Shown here: positions 1 to 15,526 of the stretch, one piece after another
Layout: each line of letters begins with the position of its first letter
Position numbering within the stretch: the first letter of the stretch is position 1
NCBI GenBank assembly: GCA_028713935.1
Contig: JAQTNI010000033.1
Span: forward strand, 1 to 15,526
Direction: 5' to 3'
DNA length: 15,526 nt
From: Candidatus Iainarchaeum sp.
Lineage (GTDB): Archaea > Iainarchaeota > Iainarchaeia > Iainarchaeales > GCA-2688035
Translations under genes and position numbers: made by a program
Notes under the pieces: generated by a model
What the model saw: the letters and a program-made list of their open reading frames with translations, nothing else
The model's database searches: none
Told to the model about the DNA's origin: nothing

Positions 1-1102
1 CCACAACAGGTTCAAACACAACAACAGTTACCAGCACTTTTGTGTTATCATAACTTATGCTTGCAATTTCCGCTGCCCTTATTGTTATCAGGGAGCAAAT
101 AAAAGCAAAGAACCAATTTCTAATGAAACACTTGACAAAGTAATTAAATTCATTAAAAACACTTGCCTTGAAAGAAAAGCAAAAGATTGTGAAATAACCC
201 TTTATGGTGGAGAACCCTTTTTATTTCCAGAAAAATGCAAGAAACTTGTAGAAGAAATAAGTGCCTGGGCAAAACAAAATGAAATAGTGTTTCATTTGAG
301 CGCATTAACAAATGGTTCTCTTTTAACCAACGAGCTCGTGGATTGGCTTTCTATTTACTCTACAAGAGTCCAAGTCCCATTGGATGGCGCCAAAACAATT
401 CATGATCAATATAGATATCACGTGGAAGAAAAAAGAGGCTCTTATGAAGATTTAATAAAATTCTTTTCTTATGCAAAAGACTCCAACATCGACTTACATT
501 TACGAATAAGTGTAACAAAAGAAACCTATCCAACAATGGAAACAATGTTGGATGACTTGAAAGAAAGAGGGTTGATGCATTTGCATCCGGATTTTTGCTA
601 TATCACTTCTTTTGTAGATGCCTGCCTCCCTTTCAGCAAATATTGTTTGGTTGATTCCGAATTGTACAAGGTTTTGCCAGAACTCTGGAAAATGGCTAGA
701 GAAAAAGGATTTAAGACAGATTTATTAAGACCAAGAGTGTCTCCTCTGCCCTGCAGCAGTATTGCAGATGGAAGCTATGTAATAGATCCTGATGGCGATG
801 TTTACAAGTGCTGGGAATTGGTAATCCAAAAACAACACTCTGTTGGAACAATCACAGAAGAAGGAAAACTTGATATCCGAGCACCATATCACGACACGCT
901 CACAAGAGACCCCGCAAACATCGAAGAATGCAGCAAATGCAAATTTTTACCAGCATGCTCTGGGGGCTGCATTTGCAAAGCAGTATGGAACAAGGGAACT
1001 TATCATGCAAGCGGTTGCGGAACAGTAAAGTATCTGCTTGTTGAACAACTGAAAGCATATCTGCTTCAAGAATACCCCGAAAAATTTGAAAAATTATTAT
1101 AA
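1..1102 (+). CDS. Radical SAM / SPASM-domain enzyme (peptide-maturase or anSME-like), 5' end cut by window edge
   Basis: The frame of ORF 287..1102 stays open back to nt 2. Nt 2-286 translate to ...VIITYACNFRCPYCYQGAN... (CX3CX2C radical-SAM cluster motif, codons 62-85) and ...EITLYGGEPF. The C-terminal part has YVIDPDGDVYKCWE and CSKCKFLPACSGGCICK (about 929-975), typical SPASM auxiliary-cluster Cys motifs. The GTG at 287 used by the ORF track is internal. Confidence 0.85.
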   Translation, partial: HNRFKHNNSYQHFCVIITYACNFRCPYCYQGANKSKEPISNETLDKVIKFIKNTCLERKAKDCEITLYGGEPFLFPEKCKKLVEEISAWAKQNEIVFHLSALTNGSLLTNELVDWLSIYSTRVQVPLDGAKTIHDQYRYHVEEKRGSYEDLIKFFSYAKDSNIDLHLRISVTKETYPTMETMLDDLKERGLMHLHPDFCYITSFVDACLPFSKYCLVDSELYKVLPELWKMAREKGFKTDLLRPRVSPLPCSSIADGSYVIDPDGDVYKCWELVIQKQHSVGTITEEGKLDIRAPYHDTLTRDPANIEECSKCKFLPACSGGCICKAVWNKGTYHASGCGTVKYLLVEQLKAYLLQEYPEKFEKLL

Positions 1103-1115
1103 AAAAGGTGATTTA

Positions 1116-1205
1116 TTGGAGAACACAAACAAAAAAAGTTTTAAAATAGAAATTATAGAGGAATATTCAAATCCAAAGATTTCACATTGCTTTGTTCTTG
1201 TCTAA
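1116..1205 (+). CDS. Candidate short precursor-like peptide, 29 codons: (M)ENTNKKSFKIEIIEEYSNPKISHCFVLV
   Basis: Hand-translated ORF below the track's size cutoff. TTG start at 1116, TAA at 1203-1205. AAGGTGA (1104-1110) lies 5 nt upstream of the TTG. The ORF fills 90 of the 115 nt between the SPASM enzyme and the MBL gene. Charged N-terminal half, hydrophobic C-terminus with a single Cys. There is no homology evidence; it could be a chance ORF. Confidence 0.3.
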   Translation: MENTNKKSFKIEIIEEYSNPKISHCFVLV

Positions 1206-1217
1206 GCAAGGGAAAAA

Positions 1218-2105
1218 ATGGAATTAAAAAACATCTCCGGTTCAGTGCACTATATTCCAAACTCGTCAAATATTGGAGTAATAATCAAAAACAAAAATTG
1301 TGTTTTGATTGATACAGGATTAGATTCTGACACGGGGAAAAAAATATTAAAACTTCTCGAAGAAAAAAACCTGTGCCTAAAAGCCATTATTAACACCCAC
1401 GCGCATGCTGACCATTTTGGGGGAAACAAAATAATAAAAGAAAAAACAAATTGCTTAGTTTGTGCTCCAAAAATTGAAGCTTGCATAATTGAAAATCCAA
1501 TATTAGAATCATTACTGTTTTTCTCTGGAGCTGAGCCTTTGCCAGAATTAAAAAACAAGTTTTTAATGGCAGAACCCTGCGAAGTAGACAAAATTATTGA
1601 AAATGGAACGTTAGAAATTGAAAATTTTTCAATGCAAATTACCAATCTGCCTGGGCACTCCATAAATCAAATTGGAATTATTTTTGAGGGCGTGATTTTT
1701 TGCGGAGATAGTTTTTTTTCAAAAGAAACAATAGAAAAACATAAAATCCCTTTTTTTGTTAATATCGAAGAAACAAAAAAAACCCTAAATTCTTTGAAAG
1801 AAACAAACTATTCAACTTATGCTCCTTCGCACGTAGACCCGCAAAACAATGTTAAGGAAATAATTAATGAAAACTTAAAAACAATAGAAAAAATAGAAAA
1901 TGCGATTTTAGAAATTTTGCAACAGTCCAAAAGCACAGAACAAACTCTTAAACAATTAGCAAGAAACTTTAAAATCAAAATAACTTCGGTCCAACAATAT
2001 TACTTGCTGAAAACCTCTTTATTAGCATATTTGGAATATTTATCCAAAAATAAAAGAATAAAAACAGAAATCGAAAATAACCAGTTACAATGGATTAGGC
2101 TGTAA
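1218..2105 (+). CDS. MBL-fold metallo-hydrolase (metallo-beta-lactamase superfamily)
   Basis: INTHAHADHFGGN carries the HxHxDH zinc motif. Downstream LPGHS and CGDSFF fit later MBL motifs. ATG at 1218 is preceded by AAGGGA. Markedly AT-richer than the rest of the window. Confidence 0.85.
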   Translation: MELKNISGSVHYIPNSSNIGVIIKNKNCVLIDTGLDSDTGKKILKLLEEKNLCLKAIINTHAHADHFGGNKIIKEKTNCLVCAPKIEACIIENPILESLLFFSGAEPLPELKNKFLMAEPCEVDKIIENGTLEIENFSMQITNLPGHSINQIGIIFEGVIFCGDSFFSKETIEKHKIPFFVNIEETKKTLNSLKETNYSTYAPSHVDPQNNVKEIINENLKTIEKIENAILEILQQSKSTEQTLKQLARNFKIKITSVQQYYLLKTSLLAYLEYLSKNKRIKTEIENNQLQWIRL

Positions 2106-10748: not shown

Positions 10749-11135
10749 TTATTTTTTCCTTGGTTTTTCGCTTTCTTCTTTTGCCTTTTCTTCTGTGCCT
10801 GCGGAAAAGCCTTTTTGTGCTGATTCTATTTCCGATTTGAGCTTGTTAAGCCTGTTAATAAGGGAATCTTCCTGTTTCTGAAGTGTTTTGATTCTCAGTT
10901 CAATTGATTCTTTTTTTTCCTGCAGTTCTTTTTTTGCTTCGGCTGTTTCGGCCTGCACCAAAATGTTTCCAACTGCCTTGTAAACTTTTTTTTCCTTTGT
11001 CTTGGCAAGCTCTTCAACAGAATTTGCAAGCGCTGTTTGCTGCATCTGGAGCTGCTGTTTTTGTGCGGAAACATTCATCAATTGGTTCCTGTTGCGCTCA
11101 AATTCCATTGCTTTTGCCTGAATTTCGTCTGCCAT
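10749..11135 (-). CDS. pfdB: Prefoldin beta subunit
   Basis: Coiled-coil, beta-hairpin, coiled-coil layout with KKVYKAVGNILVQAE at the centre. Position after pcc1 matches the conserved superoperon. ATG directly abuts the pcc1 TAA (TAAATG) and is preceded by GGAGGT. Confidence 0.8.
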   Translation of the reverse strand: MADEIQAKAMEFERNRNQLMNVSAQKQQLQMQQTALANSVEELAKTKEKKVYKAVGNILVQAETAEAKKELQEKKESIELRIKTLQKQEDSLINRLNKLKSEIESAQKGFSAGTEEKAKEESEKPRKK

Positions 11136-11387
11136 TTATTCTACCTCCAAAATTTCTTCAGCAAGAATAATTGATTTTAAGCAAGAATTCAAAGAGGCCT
11201 TCAATGCTGTTTTGTCAAGCGCCTCAATATCAATTAAAATCAAAGAATTTTTAATTTTAACAATTGTTTCGGAACGAATGTTCCTGTAAGGGGTTATTTC
11301 AGGCATTATGGAAGCGCCTATTGAATGCGCTTTTTCTTTATTCCCAAAATCAAGCCTGAGGCGAAATTCAAATTTTGCATTCTGCAA
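11136..11387 (-). CDS. pcc1: KEOPS complex subunit Pcc1 (CTAG/Pcc1 family)
   Basis: LILIDIEALDKTALKASLNSCLKSIILAEEI matches the Pcc1 C-terminal helix signature. The track's start at 11465 would overlap rpoP in another frame. TTG at 11387 (MQNAKFEFRLRLDF...) gives an 83-aa protein beginning 5 nt after the rpoP stop. The exact start is uncertain. Confidence 0.65.
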   Translation of the reverse strand: MQNAKFEFRLRLDFGNKEKAHSIGASIMPEITPYRNIRSETIVKIKNSLILIDIEALDKTALKASLNSCLKSIILAEEILEVE

Positions 11388-11392
11388 AGCGC

Positions 11393-11524
11393 TTACCTTG
11401 CCTTGATTGTTTTTGCCACTGCCGGCCTTGTCTTGTACAAAATTTTGTATGCGCAAGCAGGGCACCTTACCAGGCCTTCGGGAAGCTTGTTGAATGTTTC
11501 ACCGCATTTTCCGCATCTATACAC
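11393..11524 (-). CDS. rpoP: DNA-directed RNA polymerase subunit P (Rpo12/RpoP), 43 aa, absent from the ORF track
   Basis: Hand translation of the minus strand gives (M)[42 protein letters not shown], with TAA at 11393-11395. It has the CxxC...CxxC zinc ribbon followed by ILYK.R typical of RpoP/Rpb12. GTG start at 11524 has AAGG about 10 nt upstream. An alternative TTG start is at 11533. Confidence 0.8.
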
Positions 11525-11549
11525 AAAAACCAACCTTGTTTAAAATTTC

Positions 11550-11966
11550 TTAATCGTCCTTAATTTCGCCGGGATTTTTTTCCGTTTTTTCTTTTGCATG
11601 CTTTTTTTCTTTTTTGCCATGCTTAGGGCGCGCTTCGGAATCCGCATTTGCTTCTGCCTGCACAGGGGCTTTTTCTTTTGCTTCAATTAAATTGCGCAGG
11701 TTTGGCAAAAAAACTTTTTGGGAAACCATTTTTTTTACTATGGTTCCGGACATTGTTTCCGGAACATACGCTCCGCCTGCAAACTCGTAACCGCATTTTT
11801 TGCAGTAAAAAATTCCCGGAGCTTTCCTTTTCACTTTTGGAGCTCCGCACTCTGGGCAATTGTGAGGGGCAAACTGTTCCGACTCAATTTTCAGAAGCCT
11901 TTTTCTTATGCCCACACCATATCTTGAGCCGAGCCTTCCTGTGCGTTTTACTTTTTTTGTTGCCAT
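11550..11966 (-). CDS. rpl37ae: Ribosomal protein L37Ae (eL43) with long charged C-terminal extension
   Basis: GSRYGVGIRKRLLKIE...CPECGAPKVKRKAPGIFYCKKCGYEFAGGAY is the eL43 zinc-ribbon core. Residues from about 90 to 138 are a Lys/Glu/Ala-rich tail. Confidence 0.9.
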   Translation of the reverse strand: MATKKVKRTGRLGSRYGVGIRKRLLKIESEQFAPHNCPECGAPKVKRKAPGIFYCKKCGYEFAGGAYVPETMSGTIVKKMVSQKVFLPNLRNLIEAKEKAPVQAEANADSEARPKHGKKEKKHAKEKTEKNPGEIKDD

Positions 11967-11980
11967 GGATTTATCACTGG

Positions 11981-12766
11981 TTACAATTGTTTCCTGATTT
12001 CTTTTGCCTTTGCAAAAGACAAATCAATGCATTCGTCAATTTCTTTTGGCGAAAAGCTTCCTGAACCGCCTTTCTGGTATGCAGCCATATAACCGTCTTC
12101 TGTTGTTGCAACGGAAAACCTTGCTTCCATTGCTTTTTCCTCTGCAAAACAGGCATCATTCACAAGATGGCCAGCAATTTTTGTAGTTGTGCAAAGCAAA
12201 GGTTTTCTTGCTAAATGCAGTTTTCCGGAATACTCGCCTTTCACTATCTTGTATTCGTCCCCAAGCTTTGGTATTTTTGTTTCAAGCAGGGCAGAAAGCG
12301 CTGCAATTGAACAGGCATCAAAAAGATTGCCGTCATCGTTCATTGTGTACATGTCAATGAAAACAACCCAGACTTTTTCGCCTTCTTTTATGCACAATTT
12401 TTCAAAATCAAGGCACTTGCTTTCCCTTATTCCCCTGTCAACAACTCTTGCAAGCTCTGTTTCATTCTCTCTCGGAGGGCCTGGCTCGAACAAAGGGCTT
12501 GCCAGAGGCAAAAATTCAACTCCGACACTGATAGAACCCTCTTTTGGAGTGTCAGGAAATGGATCTCCTGGAACCATTTTTATTCCCGCAATTACGTCTG
12601 TTTCGCCAAGCAGGACTCTTGCGCTGCCATTGGCATTTTCACTAATGTTTTTTGTAATTTTCAGTTTCCTGTATTCGTCAAATTTCCTGTTGTCAAGCCT
12701 TTTTCCCAGCTTGATTGCTTCAATTACCTTGTCAGCCCGCAAATCCAAAACAATATCGCTTGCCAT
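11981..12766 (-). CDS. rrp42: Exosome complex subunit Rrp42 (RNase PH-like, non-catalytic)
   Basis: GKRLDNRKFDEYRKLKI...ANGSARVLLGETDVIAGIK is the RNase PH domain pattern. Gene order is rrp41 then rrp42. I prefer the ATG at 12766, 1 nt after the rrp41 TAG and preceded by GAGGGTGA, over the track's GTG at 12775. Confidence 0.9.
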   Translation of the reverse strand: MASDIVLDLRADKVIEAIKLGKRLDNRKFDEYRKLKITKNISENANGSARVLLGETDVIAGIKMVPGDPFPDTPKEGSISVGVEFLPLASPLFEPGPPRENETELARVVDRGIRESKCLDFEKLCIKEGEKVWVVFIDMYTMNDDGNLFDACSIAALSALLETKIPKLGDEYKIVKGEYSGKLHLARKPLLCTTTKIAGHLVNDACFAEEKAMEARFSVATTEDGYMAAYQKGGSGSFSPKEIDECIDLSFAKAKEIRKQL

Positions 12767-12767
12767 C

Positions 12768-13547
12768 CTATTCACCCTCTTCCTGTGTTGCTGTTTCCGT
12801 ATTCGGCTCGGATTCCTCTTTTTCGGCTTCCAAGTATTTTTTTCTCAAAGCCTCTTTTTGCACTTCATAAACCTGCTTGCATCCTTTCAAGCCGAGCTTT
12901 AAGGCCTTTTTCCATTCTTCAGGAGTTAAAAGGCCGTCCATCTGCAACAAAACAATTTCTTCTGTTCTCGGCAGGATTGCCATTGGAATATCAACGGCAT
13001 CTGGGGCGTCTTCTTCGTCCTTGTTCAAATCAAGAATTATTTCCCCGCCTGCTTTTCCAACTCCGACAGCGGAAACCATGTCTCTCATTGGAATTCCCGC
13101 ATCTGCCAGTGCAGCGCTTGCAGCAACCAAAGCCGCAACCCTTGTTCCGGCATTGCTGTCAAGGATTTCAACAAAAATATCTATTGTGGTATTGGGAAAT
13201 CTTTCCAAAAAAATTGCTTTTTCAAGCGCTTCCCCTGAAACCTTGCTTATTTCCATTTCCCTTCTTCCGGGCTTTGGATTTTTTCTGTCAGGAACTGAAA
13301 AAGTCGCCATCCTGTACTGGTAGTCCACCAATGCCTTGTAAGGATTCTGGATATGCTTTGGCAGTGCCTCTCTTGGGCCGTAAACAGCCGCAACAACCTT
13401 GTTCTGGCCCCATTCAAGGGCACAGCTTCCGTCTGCCCTGCTCAAAACCCCGACTTCAATTTTTAATGGGCGCAATTCTTCTGTGCCTCGCCCGTCAAGC
13501 CTTTTTCCATTTTTCACATACTCTGTTTTTTCCTCTTTTTTGCTCAA
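12768..13547 (-). CDS. rrp41: Exosome complex exonuclease Rrp41 (RNase PH-like, catalytic)
   Basis: GKRLDGRGTEELRPLKIEVGVLSRADGSCALEWGQNKVVAAVYGPRE and DSNAGTRVAALVAASAALADAGIPMRD are RNase PH signatures. TTG start at 13547 is preceded by GAGGGA. Confidence 0.9.
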   Translation of the reverse strand: MSKKEEKTEYVKNGKRLDGRGTEELRPLKIEVGVLSRADGSCALEWGQNKVVAAVYGPREALPKHIQNPYKALVDYQYRMATFSVPDRKNPKPGRREMEISKVSGEALEKAIFLERFPNTTIDIFVEILDSNAGTRVAALVAASAALADAGIPMRDMVSAVGVGKAGGEIILDLNKDEEDAPDAVDIPMAILPRTEEIVLLQMDGLLTPEEWKKALKLGLKGCKQVYEVQKEALRKKYLEAEKEESEPNTETATQEEGE

Positions 13548-13558
13548 ACAAATCCCTC

Positions 13559-14179
13559 TTATGCATTATTGTTTTTTTCTTTCAAAAAATTTTCAATCTT
13601 GTTAGTCAAATTGCTCAAATGAGATTCAACCTCAATTTTTTTAATCGCTTCGGAAAGCAGCTGAGTATTCCCGCCTTTTGCCCAGATCCTGCCATTGCGG
13701 CCAACCATTATGTTTGCGCCTGTGCCGATTTTAAGGGCTTCCATCATTGAAGCGTTTTTTCCGATTACGCGCGGCACCTTGACAGGGCTGATGTTTATTA
13801 TTTCGCCGCCGTAAAAAACCCTTACCTGCCCGAGCTCTGCCTCATTTATTTCGTTGACTGAAAGAATCTTTGCGGAAATAATCGAGCCTCTCTGCAGCCT
13901 GTCCCTCATGAATTCCTTTGAAACAAAGGAATAGTAAAAGGAATTAATGTCAACAATATAACCCGCGAATGTTTCCTGCACAACAATTCCTATCACAAGG
14001 TCGTCCCTTTGAGGGAAATATTTTCCATGCAATGCTACCACTGACGCGTCCTGGGAATCATTGTAAACGAGCCCAAGCGCATCGGAATAAATTTTTCCGT
14101 TTTCCATGAAAACATGCGAGCCTACTTGTTTCCTTTCTTCCGAAACGAGTTCTCCGGGAATAACAATTTTTTTCTTCAT
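13559..14179 (-). CDS. rrp4: Exosome complex RNA-binding subunit Rrp4 (S1 + KH domains)
   Basis: PGELV N-terminal domain. [21 protein letters not shown] is S1-like. [33 protein letters not shown] is KH-like. The ATG overlaps the SBDS stop (ATGA, 14176-14179). Confidence 0.9.
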
Positions 14180-14877
14180 TTTTGATTCTCCACAAATTTT
14201 GTTTCAACATTTCCATGGGTTAAATGGTTCAATTCATTCAAAAATTCCGACCTCATTCCCGCAGGCAATTCAACCAGGACAAGGAGGCTTCCGTCATTGC
14301 CCCATTCCTCTTTTTTAAGGTCGTACCTGTGCAGCATTGCGCTTGCCTTGCCGCTGAACTCAGCCGGGACCTTTATTGCAATTTTTGATTTTTCAAAGCT
14401 GATTGGAATAATTTTTTTCAATTCCTTAAGAATTTCAGTGACCTGTTCCTCAACAGGCTTAAATTCATCAATATGAACTTTTGCCTCGTTCAAGGCATTC
14501 TCAATTCTTTGCGGAGGGTGAGGTGAATTTGTCTGGGGATTCATTGCGTTTCTCGCAATCAACTGGATAATTTCCTTTCTTTTCTGCTCGCGCAACTCCC
14601 TTCTCTGCTCAGTTGTCAATTGCACTGTACCGGACTTAATGATTTTTTCCGCAATCGTTTCAATCCTTGTTGTGCCAAAAGCCTTGTTCAGTGCCTCAGT
14701 GCCCTGGACAGTTCCCTTGTTGGCGTCCTTGAAAACAGAGTCAATTGCAAGCAAATCATTAAAGCTAATTTTGTCACCTTTCCTCAGTTTCATTGCCAAA
14801 TCCGGGTCAACCAAAATTTCAAATTTTTCTCCAGAATGCTCAAGCCGCGCAATAACGGCCTCCTCAAGCTTCACCAT
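14176..14877 (-). CDS. SBDS-family ribosome maturation protein
   Basis: [27 protein letters not shown]...DANKG...AFGTT is the SBDS N-terminal domain pattern. I use the ATG at 14877 (MVKLEEAV...), preceded by GGAG, rather than the track start at 14928. Confidence 0.9.
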
Positions 14878-14891
14878 GAGACACAAAACTC

Positions 14892-14908
14892 CTGCAAAAA
14901 TTTTGCAG
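14892..14908 (-). other. Short hairpin in the psmA-SBDS spacer
   Basis: CTGCAAAAATTTTGCAG is a perfect dyad of 8 paired positions around a central A. It lies between the psmA stop (14931-14933) and the SBDS SD and ATG. Confidence 0.35.
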
Positions 14909-14930
14909 TTATTTTGAATTAAAATCAAAT

Positions 14931-15526
14931 TTATATTTTCCCTAAAACAGCCTTTAATTTCTGTTTGGAAAGCCTTTCAAACTGCTTTCCGCTTTCAATA
15001 ACAACAAAATCAAGCCTGTTAACATCAACCTTCTGCTTGTCAAGCGCCAAACCCTTGTCAATTCCCTTAAGAAGCAAAACAATCGCATCATCAAGAGGCA
15101 AATTTTCAGAATACTCTGTTTCAAAAAACTTCATGCATTCCTTTTTCCCTTTTCCAATTGCAATCGCCTTGTATTCCGCAAGAGCGCCGCTCGGCTCTGT
15201 TTCAAAAAGCCTTGCCCCAGAATCATCAACTCCGCCGACAATAAAAGAAACTCCAAAAGGCCTCATTCCGGCATACTGGGTAAACAACTGTTTCACAGCG
15301 CCAATTTCCTTTGCAAGGGTATCAACAGGAATTTTTTCATCATAATACATCTGGTTTTCCTGTGCCTGTTTTCTTGCAATCTGGACAAGCCTTCTCGCAT
15401 CACCAACAAGGCCGGAGCCGATTACTGCAACATGCTCGTCAACCCTGAAAACTTTTTCAATAGATTCAGGCATAACAAGCCTGCTGACAATTTTTTTGTC
15501 AGCGCCCAAAATAACTCCCTTATCAA
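14931..15526 (-). CDS. psmA: Proteasome subunit alpha, N-terminus beyond the window edge
   Basis: The frame stays open to the window end (...[17 protein letters not shown]...). [13 protein letters not shown]-like [18 protein letters not shown] and FETEPSG are 20S alpha-subunit signatures. The track's TTG at 15509 is internal. Confidence 0.9.

Follow-up and report, generated by a model that had tools for sequence, protein, structure and literature searches.

The stretch examined here (the window) is a whole contig of 15,526 nucleotides (nt) from a metagenome-assembled genome of Candidatus Iainarchaeum, a DPANN archaeon, and its archaeal origin was confirmed by a conserved gene string at 10.7–15.5 kb. 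At its beginning, positions 2 to 2105 carry three closely spaced genes: a radical S-adenosylmethionine (SAM) enzyme with a SPASM domain, a 29-codon open reading frame (ORF) that has no annotation in the source record, and a metallo-hydrolase of the metallo-β-lactamase (MBL) fold. The radical SAM gene stops at a TAA (1100–1102) and the MBL gene starts at ATG 1218, which leaves a spacer of 115 nt (1103–1217). The original prediction that this spacer is filled by a short ORF running from TTG 1116 to TAA 1205 was confirmed both by reading and by conservation; the ORF has 29 sense codons, encodes (M)ENTNKKSFKIEIIEEYSNPKISHCFVLV and ends 12 nt before the MBL start. The features are as follows.

2..1102, forward strand: radical SAM/SPASM peptide-maturase-like enzyme, C-terminal 366 residues (translation; PF04055, PF13186, TIGR04085)
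62..85, forward strand: CX3CX2C codons (C-N-F-R-C-P-Y-C) for binding the radical SAM [4Fe-4S] cluster (Cys 21, 25 and 28; invariant in alignment A1)
752..1006, forward strand: SPASM auxiliary-cluster domain (Cys 251, 270, 310, 313, 319, 323, 325 and 339 of the partial protein)
1105..1111, forward strand: Shine-Dalgarno-like AAGGTGA, 4 nt upstream of the TTG start of the short ORF
1116..1205, forward strand: predicted 29-codon peptide gene, leader-like half F-K-I-E-I-I-E-E followed by a C-terminal core (conservation, synonymous versus nonsynonymous differences, homology to tails)
1173..1202, forward strand: putative core P-K-I-S-H-C-F-V-L-V-COOH, with its single conserved Cys codon at 1188–1190
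1218..2105, forward strand: MBL-fold metallo-hydrolase of 295 aa, an MBL domain with H-A-H-A-D-H and a C-terminal helical/β-hairpin domain (PF00753)
10749..15509, minus strand: prefoldin beta, Pcc1, ribosomal L37ae, Rrp42, Rrp41, Rrp4, SBDS and a proteasome subunit (conserved archaeal gene string)

With 37 ORFs of at least 25 codons within the first 3 kb, in DNA of 31–38% GC, the short ORF alone would not stand beyond chance, and it is its conservation that makes it real. The radical SAM enzyme has seven close homologues (74–81% identity, 441–445 aa) on Micrarchaeota-type contigs, and an ORF of 26–29 codons lies between the radical SAM and MBL genes in all retrieved close-homologue loci (L002–L010), with the products MEKNQKAKFEIEVIEEKSKPKISHCFVLV, (M)KKENFEIEVIEKYIKPTISHCFVLV, (M)EKNQKSRFEIQVIEECSKPKISHCFVLV, (M)KKECTLDFKIEVIEEKAKPQISHCFVLV and MEKKPKFEIKVIEEKSKPKISHCFVLV. 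In each of L002–L006 a GGTGAT is placed 3–6 nt upstream of a TTG, GTG or ATG start, usually overlapping the stop codon of the radical SAM gene (GAG-TAG-GTGAT), and the ORF has kept its own Shine-Dalgarno sequence and start in six distinct loci. The AAGGTGA predicted ahead of the short ORF in the window is present, at 1105–1111 rather than at 1104–1110, and the GGTGA-type signal that had been noted before another gene of the window was also found, as an AGGTGAT three nt upstream of the minus-strand ATG 4393 of a KaiC-like gene (PF06745 at 189 bits). Over the last 21 codons of the short ORF the pairwise proportion of synonymous differences is 0.55–1.1 (saturated) versus 0.02–0.17 for nonsynonymous ones; the end ISHCFVLV is invariant in the free peptides while all eight of its codons vary synonymously. 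An alternative in-frame TTG at 1086 would extend the ORF to 39 codons.

Relative to the radical SAM gene, the reading frame of the short ORF is 0, +1 or +2, depending on the locus. Since all three frame relations occur, the short peptide would be translated independently and without recoding, and a fusion of peptide and enzyme by stop-codon read-through or frameshifting in these loci was excluded on the same grounds. An RNA element in the spacer was likewise rejected, as positions 1–2600 of the window gave no Rfam match and the codon pattern is protein-like. The ORF was annotated once by one gene caller, as P0341, and a search with a 48-residue tail profile matched only this called 29-aa gene and a contig-end fragment. 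Judged on its sequence, TTG 1116 to TAA 1205 is thus a real gene that is translated and under selection. In one locus (L005, 1482–1500), where CAG stands in place of the usual TAG stop, the radical SAM enzyme is four residues (QVIV) longer, and the TGA at which it terminates shares bases with the TTG that starts the peptide gene.

In more distant homologues (42–52% identity, 463–499 aa), which come from DPANN archaea and bacteria, the same peptide forms a C-terminal tail of the enzyme itself. This fused tail has the consensus ...[L/F]-x-[L/I]-x-[I/V]-I-E-G-x-Q-E-P-x-M-S-H-C-Y-V-L-V-COOH, which can be matched position by position to the free peptide F-K-I-E-I-I-E-E-Y-S-N-P-K-I-S-H-C-F-V-L-V (alignments A1 and A2); between the tail and the enzyme's last helix lies a linker that varies in length and sequence. 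Of the 36 distinct tails compared, 29 are fused, 6 are free and 1 is a remnant, and all 36 share Pro-10, His-6, Cys-5, Leu-2 and Val-1, counted from the C-terminus. Position -3 is Val in 35 of them, position -8 is Met or Ile, and position -4 is Tyr in 30 tails and Phe in the six free peptides. The pattern H-C-[YFW]-x-x-x-stop was confined to loci of this family in a scan of 177 loci, more than 150 of which carry other SPASM maturases. The separate tiny ORF envisaged at the outset therefore holds for the split clade of Iainarchaeum and Micrarchaeota, and most members of the family have the peptide fused to the enzyme instead.

The two architectures also differ in the SPASM domain. At the second Cys of its CX2C, the split clade has Cys in 8 of 8 enzymes (C-S-K-C at 929–940 of the window), whereas the enzymes with a fused tail have His (27), Asp (2) or Cys (1), so ligation of the auxiliary cluster seems to differ between them. 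A neighbor-joining tree, a crude method, placed the split clade as sister of all fused enzymes, and outgroup enzymes end ...Y-P-x-K-F..., as the split enzymes do; together these features suggest, within the limits of that tree, that the fusion is a derived state and that a separate downstream peptide preceded it. Two outgroup radical SAM proteins (P0040 and P0045, 33–36% identity) end ...E-[E/R]-C-T-Y-E-T-I-V-[V/L]-COOH, perhaps another fused tail with a Cys, distinct from the first. The single remnant is found in a cultured organism, Caloranaerobacter sp. DY30410 (GCA_050286925.1; L177, 5845–5991), as an intact 48-codon ORF, MYLLKDKVRIYVKTIDLTKTKVIKSGNLTLEIIEGKQEPKMSHCYVLV, that corresponds to the last 47 residues of a fused radical SAM enzyme and is 66% identical to residues 423–469 of the fused homologue P0022. 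It lies 9 nt upstream of an MBL gene, with RNase R and SmpB on the two sides of the segment, and would represent a cassette in decay or else a unit of peptide and MBL that stands alone.

For the enzyme, profile hidden Markov model (HMM) classification, which the original prediction had proposed, placed it among peptide maturases. It belongs to the radical SAM superfamily (PF04055 at 65.4 bits versus a cut-off of 29.5; cluster motif C21-N-F-R-C25-P-Y-C28) and carries a SPASM domain (PF13186 at 25.2 bits versus 21.5, residues 251–314; TIGR04085 at 56.4 versus 27, residues 254–335) with the motif CX2CX5CX3C plus flanking Cys residues. For the fragment in the window, CefB scored 276 bits, TIGR04463 198, Clo7bot 170, PapB 151 and geopeptide 150, and the best curated models are all maturases of Cys-crosslinked peptides that are made ribosomally and modified post-translationally (RiPPs). 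PqqE and MftC were outside the best 25 HMM matches. The full-length homologue P0003 scored 337 bits against CefB, 231 against TIGR04463, 184 against Clo7bot and 152 against PapB, the four models that passed the scan threshold, and the full-length fused homologue P0022 scored 302 against CefB. In full-length enzymes the CefB profile is matched from position 1; in the window the match begins at profile position 75, and therefore about 75 N-terminal residues, the putative RiPP recognition element (RRE) domain, are absent from the protein, which the contig end truncates. The enzyme is not a member of the CefB family (NF038107), as the cut-off is 600 bits and the precursor here has one conserved Cys (-5) rather than one at every fifth position, nor of the PapB family (NF047865; 151–152 bits versus a cut-off of 340). 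It is also not an anaerobic sulfatase-maturating enzyme (anSME; TIGR03942), which scored only 95 bits versus 349, and no sulfatase was present in the window or in any homologous locus.

An AlphaFold2 model of P0022 (predicted local distance difference test, pLDDT, 89.6) shows an N-terminal β3-α3 domain with RRE topology (residues 7–77). The leader-like part of its tail (443–455) is modeled as a β-hairpin at a pLDDT of about 94 and the last nine residues at 62, a drop that looks like a split between leader and core; in this model the tail may dock onto the RRE. Foldseek with the model returned the thioether-forming maturase CteB (5WHY/5WGG; E 1e-20) as the top match, aligned along its entire length, followed by TigE, anSME, ChlB and SuiB, and CteB is also the best PDB match by sequence, at 52 bits. 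The enzyme is thus closest to thioether-forming RiPP maturases, to CefB, TIGR04463 and PapB by HMM and to CteB by fold. As in RiPP systems generally, a short encoded peptide adjoins the modifying enzyme and is conserved with it.

The third gene encodes a member of the MBL superfamily (PF00753 at 90.2 bits versus a cut-off of 22.7), in which H61-A-H63-A-D65-H66, H147, D164 and H205 are invariant (alignment A3). Its AlphaFold2 model (pLDDT 94.5) matched LACTB2 (4AD9) and TTHA1429 (2ZO4) best in Foldseek, with Burkholderia MBL-domain proteins, GloB and PqsE also among the matches, and PqqB was absent from the top 50. Glyoxalase II is a structural neighbor only, because the protein scored 64.1 bits versus a cut-off of 200.8 for TIGR03413 (GloB). 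An MBL gene lies within tens of nt 3' of the radical SAM gene or its tail in every intact family locus. This holds for an archaeal fused locus beside ribosomal and FtsZ genes (L091/L092), for a bacterial fused locus with CsrA and histidine kinases (L093/L094), for a further bacterial one on an element that also encodes TrwC, ArdA and a transposase (L095/L096), and for L097 and the whole split clade, where the MBL gene is directly downstream too. In L097 (5361–6308) the MBL protein aligns from I-E-L-K-R-V where homologues have M-E-L-K, and an upstream TTG start of this ORF overlaps the end of the radical SAM gene. In our sample the radical SAM gene or tail never occurs without the MBL gene, while the MBL gene does occur without them, and the MBL family is the larger of the two, with 506 matches at E < 1e-10. 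In a rough MBL tree the proteins of Orenia and Caloranaerobacter nest among those linked to radical SAM genes, which is consistent with secondary loss of the radical SAM gene. A large Bathyarchaeota clade, about 43% identical to the MBL protein of the window, appears to stand without a radical SAM partner gene, as seen in one context (L179/L180, 6001–6891).

The family is rare. A profile search of 1.84 billion representatives clustered at 50% identity recovered two clusters of it, at 798 and 717 bits, along with fragments, and the next-best radical SAM proteins (at most 382 bits) end before the tail columns, so the tail is specific to the family. Scans of genome and metagenome contigs with the radical SAM alignment, in which one of the two patterns was the CX3CX2C motif region, added among the matches listed only L011, which is cut at a contig end, and L097; the other matches listed were maturases at 22–35% identity. 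Plasmids gave relatives at about 28% identity only, and viral contigs one partial match at 30% identity. The two- or three-gene module is present in both archaeal and bacterial contexts. The maturase-like cassette of the original prediction is supported, and the system is not specific to archaea.

No conserved neighbor besides the MBL gene was found among the family loci examined. The genes directly upstream in L003, L004 and L006 are mutually unrelated, so a conserved upstream regulator was rejected. The original prediction had suggested a look upstream of the cassette for RRE/PqqD-like, transporter or protease genes; in the homologous loci the upstream regions hold no sulfatase, transporter or protease, and the RRE-type domain, as modeled, is the N-terminus of the enzyme itself. 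A CYTH-domain gene occurs near the cassette in three split-clade loci (L003, 1–1894; L004, 2340–4374; L005, 2499–2981), and two of these add a second radical SAM protein of 450–500 residues (65% mutual identity) with a weak AAA_18 match. The CYTH protein of L005 shares only 26–34% identity with the other two; no CYTH gene is present in the window. A YbaK-like tRNA_edit gene flanks the MBL gene in four Micrarchaeota-type loci (L002, 2605–3111; L003, 4806–5342; L004, 7458–7994; L006, 6090–6629), on either strand and at 56–73% identity between loci, and is not in the window. The YbaK-like gene probably reflects lineage synteny and is not a part of the system; by their distribution, both it and the CYTH gene appear as clade-specific synteny. 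Anti-phage defense was considered in view of a weak Apyc1 Pfam flag on the MBL protein and the nearby CYTH genes. PADLOC matched the radical SAM core alone to prokaryotic viperin models (55–69 bits) and gave no match for the MBL protein, and with only these generic core matches and CYTH genes in three loci, poorly conserved, a defense system was rejected. Just 3' of the MBL gene of the window, a 76-codon ORF on the forward strand (2247–2477) encodes an N-terminus that resembles a signal peptide (MKKFIARALAVILVFCLLGTA), as well as a C-C-x-x-x-C stretch.

That the peptide gene is real and under selection, that it is homologous to the fused tails and that the radical SAM and MBL genes always accompany it are findings; the peptide's role as substrate, the type of chemistry and the part played by the MBL protein are what we infer from them. 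On balance we think it rather probable that positions 2–2105 of the window form a compact operon for a RiPP-like peptide-modification system whose enzyme modifies the single-Cys core. In such a system, the N-terminal RRE of the radical SAM/SPASM enzyme would bind the leader-like β-strand half of the peptide (F-x-I-x-V/I-I-E-E), and the enzyme would act on the invariant core P-x-[I/M]-x-H-C-[F/Y]-V-L-V-COOH. A 5'-deoxyadenosyl radical would abstract a hydrogen, and the single Cys would then form a thioether with a carbon in one of the four C-terminal residues. The MBL-fold metallo-hydrolase might process what results, for instance releasing the modified end or hydrolysing it. In the Iainarchaeum/Micrarchaeota clade the peptide would be the product of a separate, translationally coupled micro-gene and be modified in trans, whereas fused members would modify themselves in cis over a tether, one substrate per enzyme; variability of the linker is expected for a tether. 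The core Cys lies five residues from the free carboxylate (C-X3-X-COOH), the length of one PapB/CefA-type unit. In leader-CSANG (C-X3-Gly-COOH), PapB joins an internal Cys to the residue at the C-terminus, a reaction that depends on the free carboxylate (PMC12373016).

Several points weigh against this interpretation. No curated maturase cut-off (340–600 bits) was reached by the radical SAM protein or by a full-length homologue. PapB failed on C-terminal L-Ala, Lys, Phe, Asn and Ile as well as Gln (PMC12373016), and a crosslink to a C-terminal L-Val is therefore without direct precedent. The residue modified by TigE, which ranks second among the structural relatives, is Val and not Cys, and by analogy another chemistry on the V-L-V end, like that of TigE, is possible. 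The invariant His-Cys pair could equally be a ligand of a metal or cluster rather than a reaction site, and that the enzyme modifies the peptide or tail at all is something we infer. MBL relatives at 43–52% identity occur without a radical SAM gene in Orenia marismortui and Bathyarchaeota; the MBL protein is thus able to work independently, and with such close relatives its role as a dedicated tailoring enzyme is unproven.

The question of whether the His-Cys pair is a ligand leads to a different account, in which the tail or peptide is a detachable segment of the enzyme, either supplying His and Cys to an auxiliary Fe-S cluster or acting as an autoinhibitory plug, and is a split protein in Iainarchaeum and Micrarchaeota, while the enzyme has another substrate that is possibly linked to the MBL protein. 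Such a segment would fit the finding that in 29 of the 36 distinct cases the sequence belongs to the enzyme polypeptide, the invariance of two residues that are typical metal ligands, and the change from CX2C to CX2H in the fused enzymes, by which ligation would vary with architecture; a fused substrate, moreover, means one turnover per enzyme, which is unusual. However, the linker that joins the tail is poorly conserved and variable in length, which does not resemble a structural element, the enzyme has its complete set of SPASM cysteines even without the tail, and the only known role of an RRE-type N-terminal domain, as modeled here, is to bind a peptide substrate. Conservation up to the last residue with a free carboxylate resembles C-terminally modified precursors, and the nearest families all act on small Cys peptides, so we regard a purely structural tail as unlikely.

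A shade less likely again is a cofactor or small-molecule pathway like those of pyrroloquinoline quinone (PQQ) or mycofactocin, in which the radical SAM enzyme would modify the C-terminal residues (decarboxylation or a C-C crosslink, at Tyr/Phe or Val) and the MBL protein would excise a small product. The three folds correspond to those of PqqE/PqqA/PqqB, a hydrolase gene is a constant neighbor, the peptide of about 30 residues has an invariant extreme C-terminus as MftA does, a one-to-one fusion of enzyme and substrate suits a low-flux product, and Val chemistry of the TigE type is structurally close. Yet no PqqC/D/F- or MftB/D/E/F-like gene was seen in any locus examined, the peptide has neither an E-X3-Y nor a G-V-Y motif, and Phe replaces Tyr throughout the split clade, so phenol chemistry is not required. 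The HMM ranking, headed by thioether maturases with PqqE and MftC outside the best 25, and the structural neighbors of the MBL protein (LACTB2, TTHA1429, GloB and PqsE, PqqB being absent from the best 50) also disagree with it. Finally, the 29-codon ORF might have been a chance ORF of an AT-rich spacer or a regulatory or RNA element, beside an enzyme of the anSME or cofactor type, as the number of ORFs of similar size in the first 3 kb and the missing annotation of the short gene would allow. This explanation is effectively refuted by codon-level selection for protein coding, the conserved start and Shine-Dalgarno sequence, homology to protein tails, the one call as P0341, the lack of an Rfam match, and the low anSME score with no sulfatase nearby. 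Two of the outcomes that the original prediction had named as counting against it, a short ORF that is not conserved and an anSME next to a sulfatase, were both looked for and neither was found; the short ORF is instead kept in all radical SAM-MBL neighborhoods of the split clade, with an invariant H-C-F core under purifying selection.

Returning to the RiPP-like operon, the cassette may further represent an unrecognized RiPP class, defined by a maturase that carries its own substrate, a natural C-terminal macrocycle in which Cys-5 is joined by a thioether to one of the final residues beside the free carboxylate, processing by a dedicated MBL protein and transfer between archaea and bacteria; we hold this to be a serious possibility that falls somewhat short of probable. 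If such a class exists, it is conceivable, to a similar degree, that the tethered core makes the enzyme modify itself in one turnover only, as the borosins' counterpart among radical SAM enzymes, and that the DPANN clade releases the core as the product of a 29-residue micro-gene.

Radical SAM/SPASM peptide maturases are a main source of new peptide chemistry, and a fusion like the one seen here would identify the substrate without guesswork and offer a test system made of one protein. In the full-text literature searched, from which many subscription papers fall outside coverage, we found neither the motif nor a report of a substrate fused to the C-terminus of its own radical SAM/SPASM maturase. 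The natural pair of split and fused forms should be useful for studying leader recognition and tethering, and the core may be the natural counterpart of a C-terminal thioether macrocyclization shown so far only with engineered PapB substrates. Candidate RiPP systems are few in DPANN archaea, which with their small genomes retain few dispensable genes, and the cassette is one of them; it also illustrates that an operon can have as its key component a 29-codon gene overlooked by annotation.

Among known systems, the thermocellin maturase CteB shares the architecture of an N-terminal RRE (a putative one in the homologue), a radical SAM core and a SPASM domain with the fused homologue model, with a TM score of 0.63–0.70 over 458–488 aligned columns at only 19% identity, and, like the proposed enzyme, acts on Cys of a small peptide. 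Its precursor CteA is separate and has multiple Cys residues, and the CteB system has neither a fused or downstream single-Cys core nor an MBL partner. CefB with its "Cys-every-fifth" precursor CefA, TIGR04463 and Clo7bot gave the highest curated HMM scores, with the profile matched end to end, and the five-residue period of CefA equals the length of C-x-x-x-x-COOH in the core described here. Nevertheless, at 276–337 bits versus 600 the enzyme is outside the CefB family, and the peptide has one Cys where CefA is a repeat array. PapB and PapA, which make the ranthipeptide freyrasin, use a C-X3-acceptor unit, the geometry proposed for C-[F/Y]-V-L-V-COOH, although natural PapA has Asp acceptors and six repeats, unlike the single-Cys core. 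In PQQ biosynthesis the same three folds are encoded side by side, and the tiny PqqA peptide is often missed by gene callers. The original prediction had taken this trio as precedent, and the match of folds stands, but the analogy is only fold-deep: the peptide here is without E-X3-Y and has Phe in the split clade, no PqqC/D/F gene is nearby, the putative RRE is fused to the enzyme, and the MBL protein resembles LACTB2, glyoxalase II and PqsE rather than PqqB, which places the cassette outside PQQ biosynthesis. The mycofactocin precursor MftA has about 30 residues and an extreme C-terminus conserved to the last residue, and is modified by a radical SAM/SPASM enzyme. It ends in G-V-Y rather than H-C-[F/Y]-V-L-V, and with no MftB/D/E/F neighbors the cassette does not belong to that pathway either. 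Borosins have the core peptide fused to the C-terminus of their own modifying enzyme, and in related bacterial systems enzyme and precursor are split into separate genes (PMC8429565). Borosins (autocatalytic N-methyltransferases of the OphMA type) use a SAM methyltransferase, not a radical SAM enzyme, and are unrelated in sequence, chemistry and taxa, so the parallel would be one of architecture only. Although it lies below every curated family cut-off tested, the cassette would, by analogy, work like a sactipeptide or ranthipeptide system.

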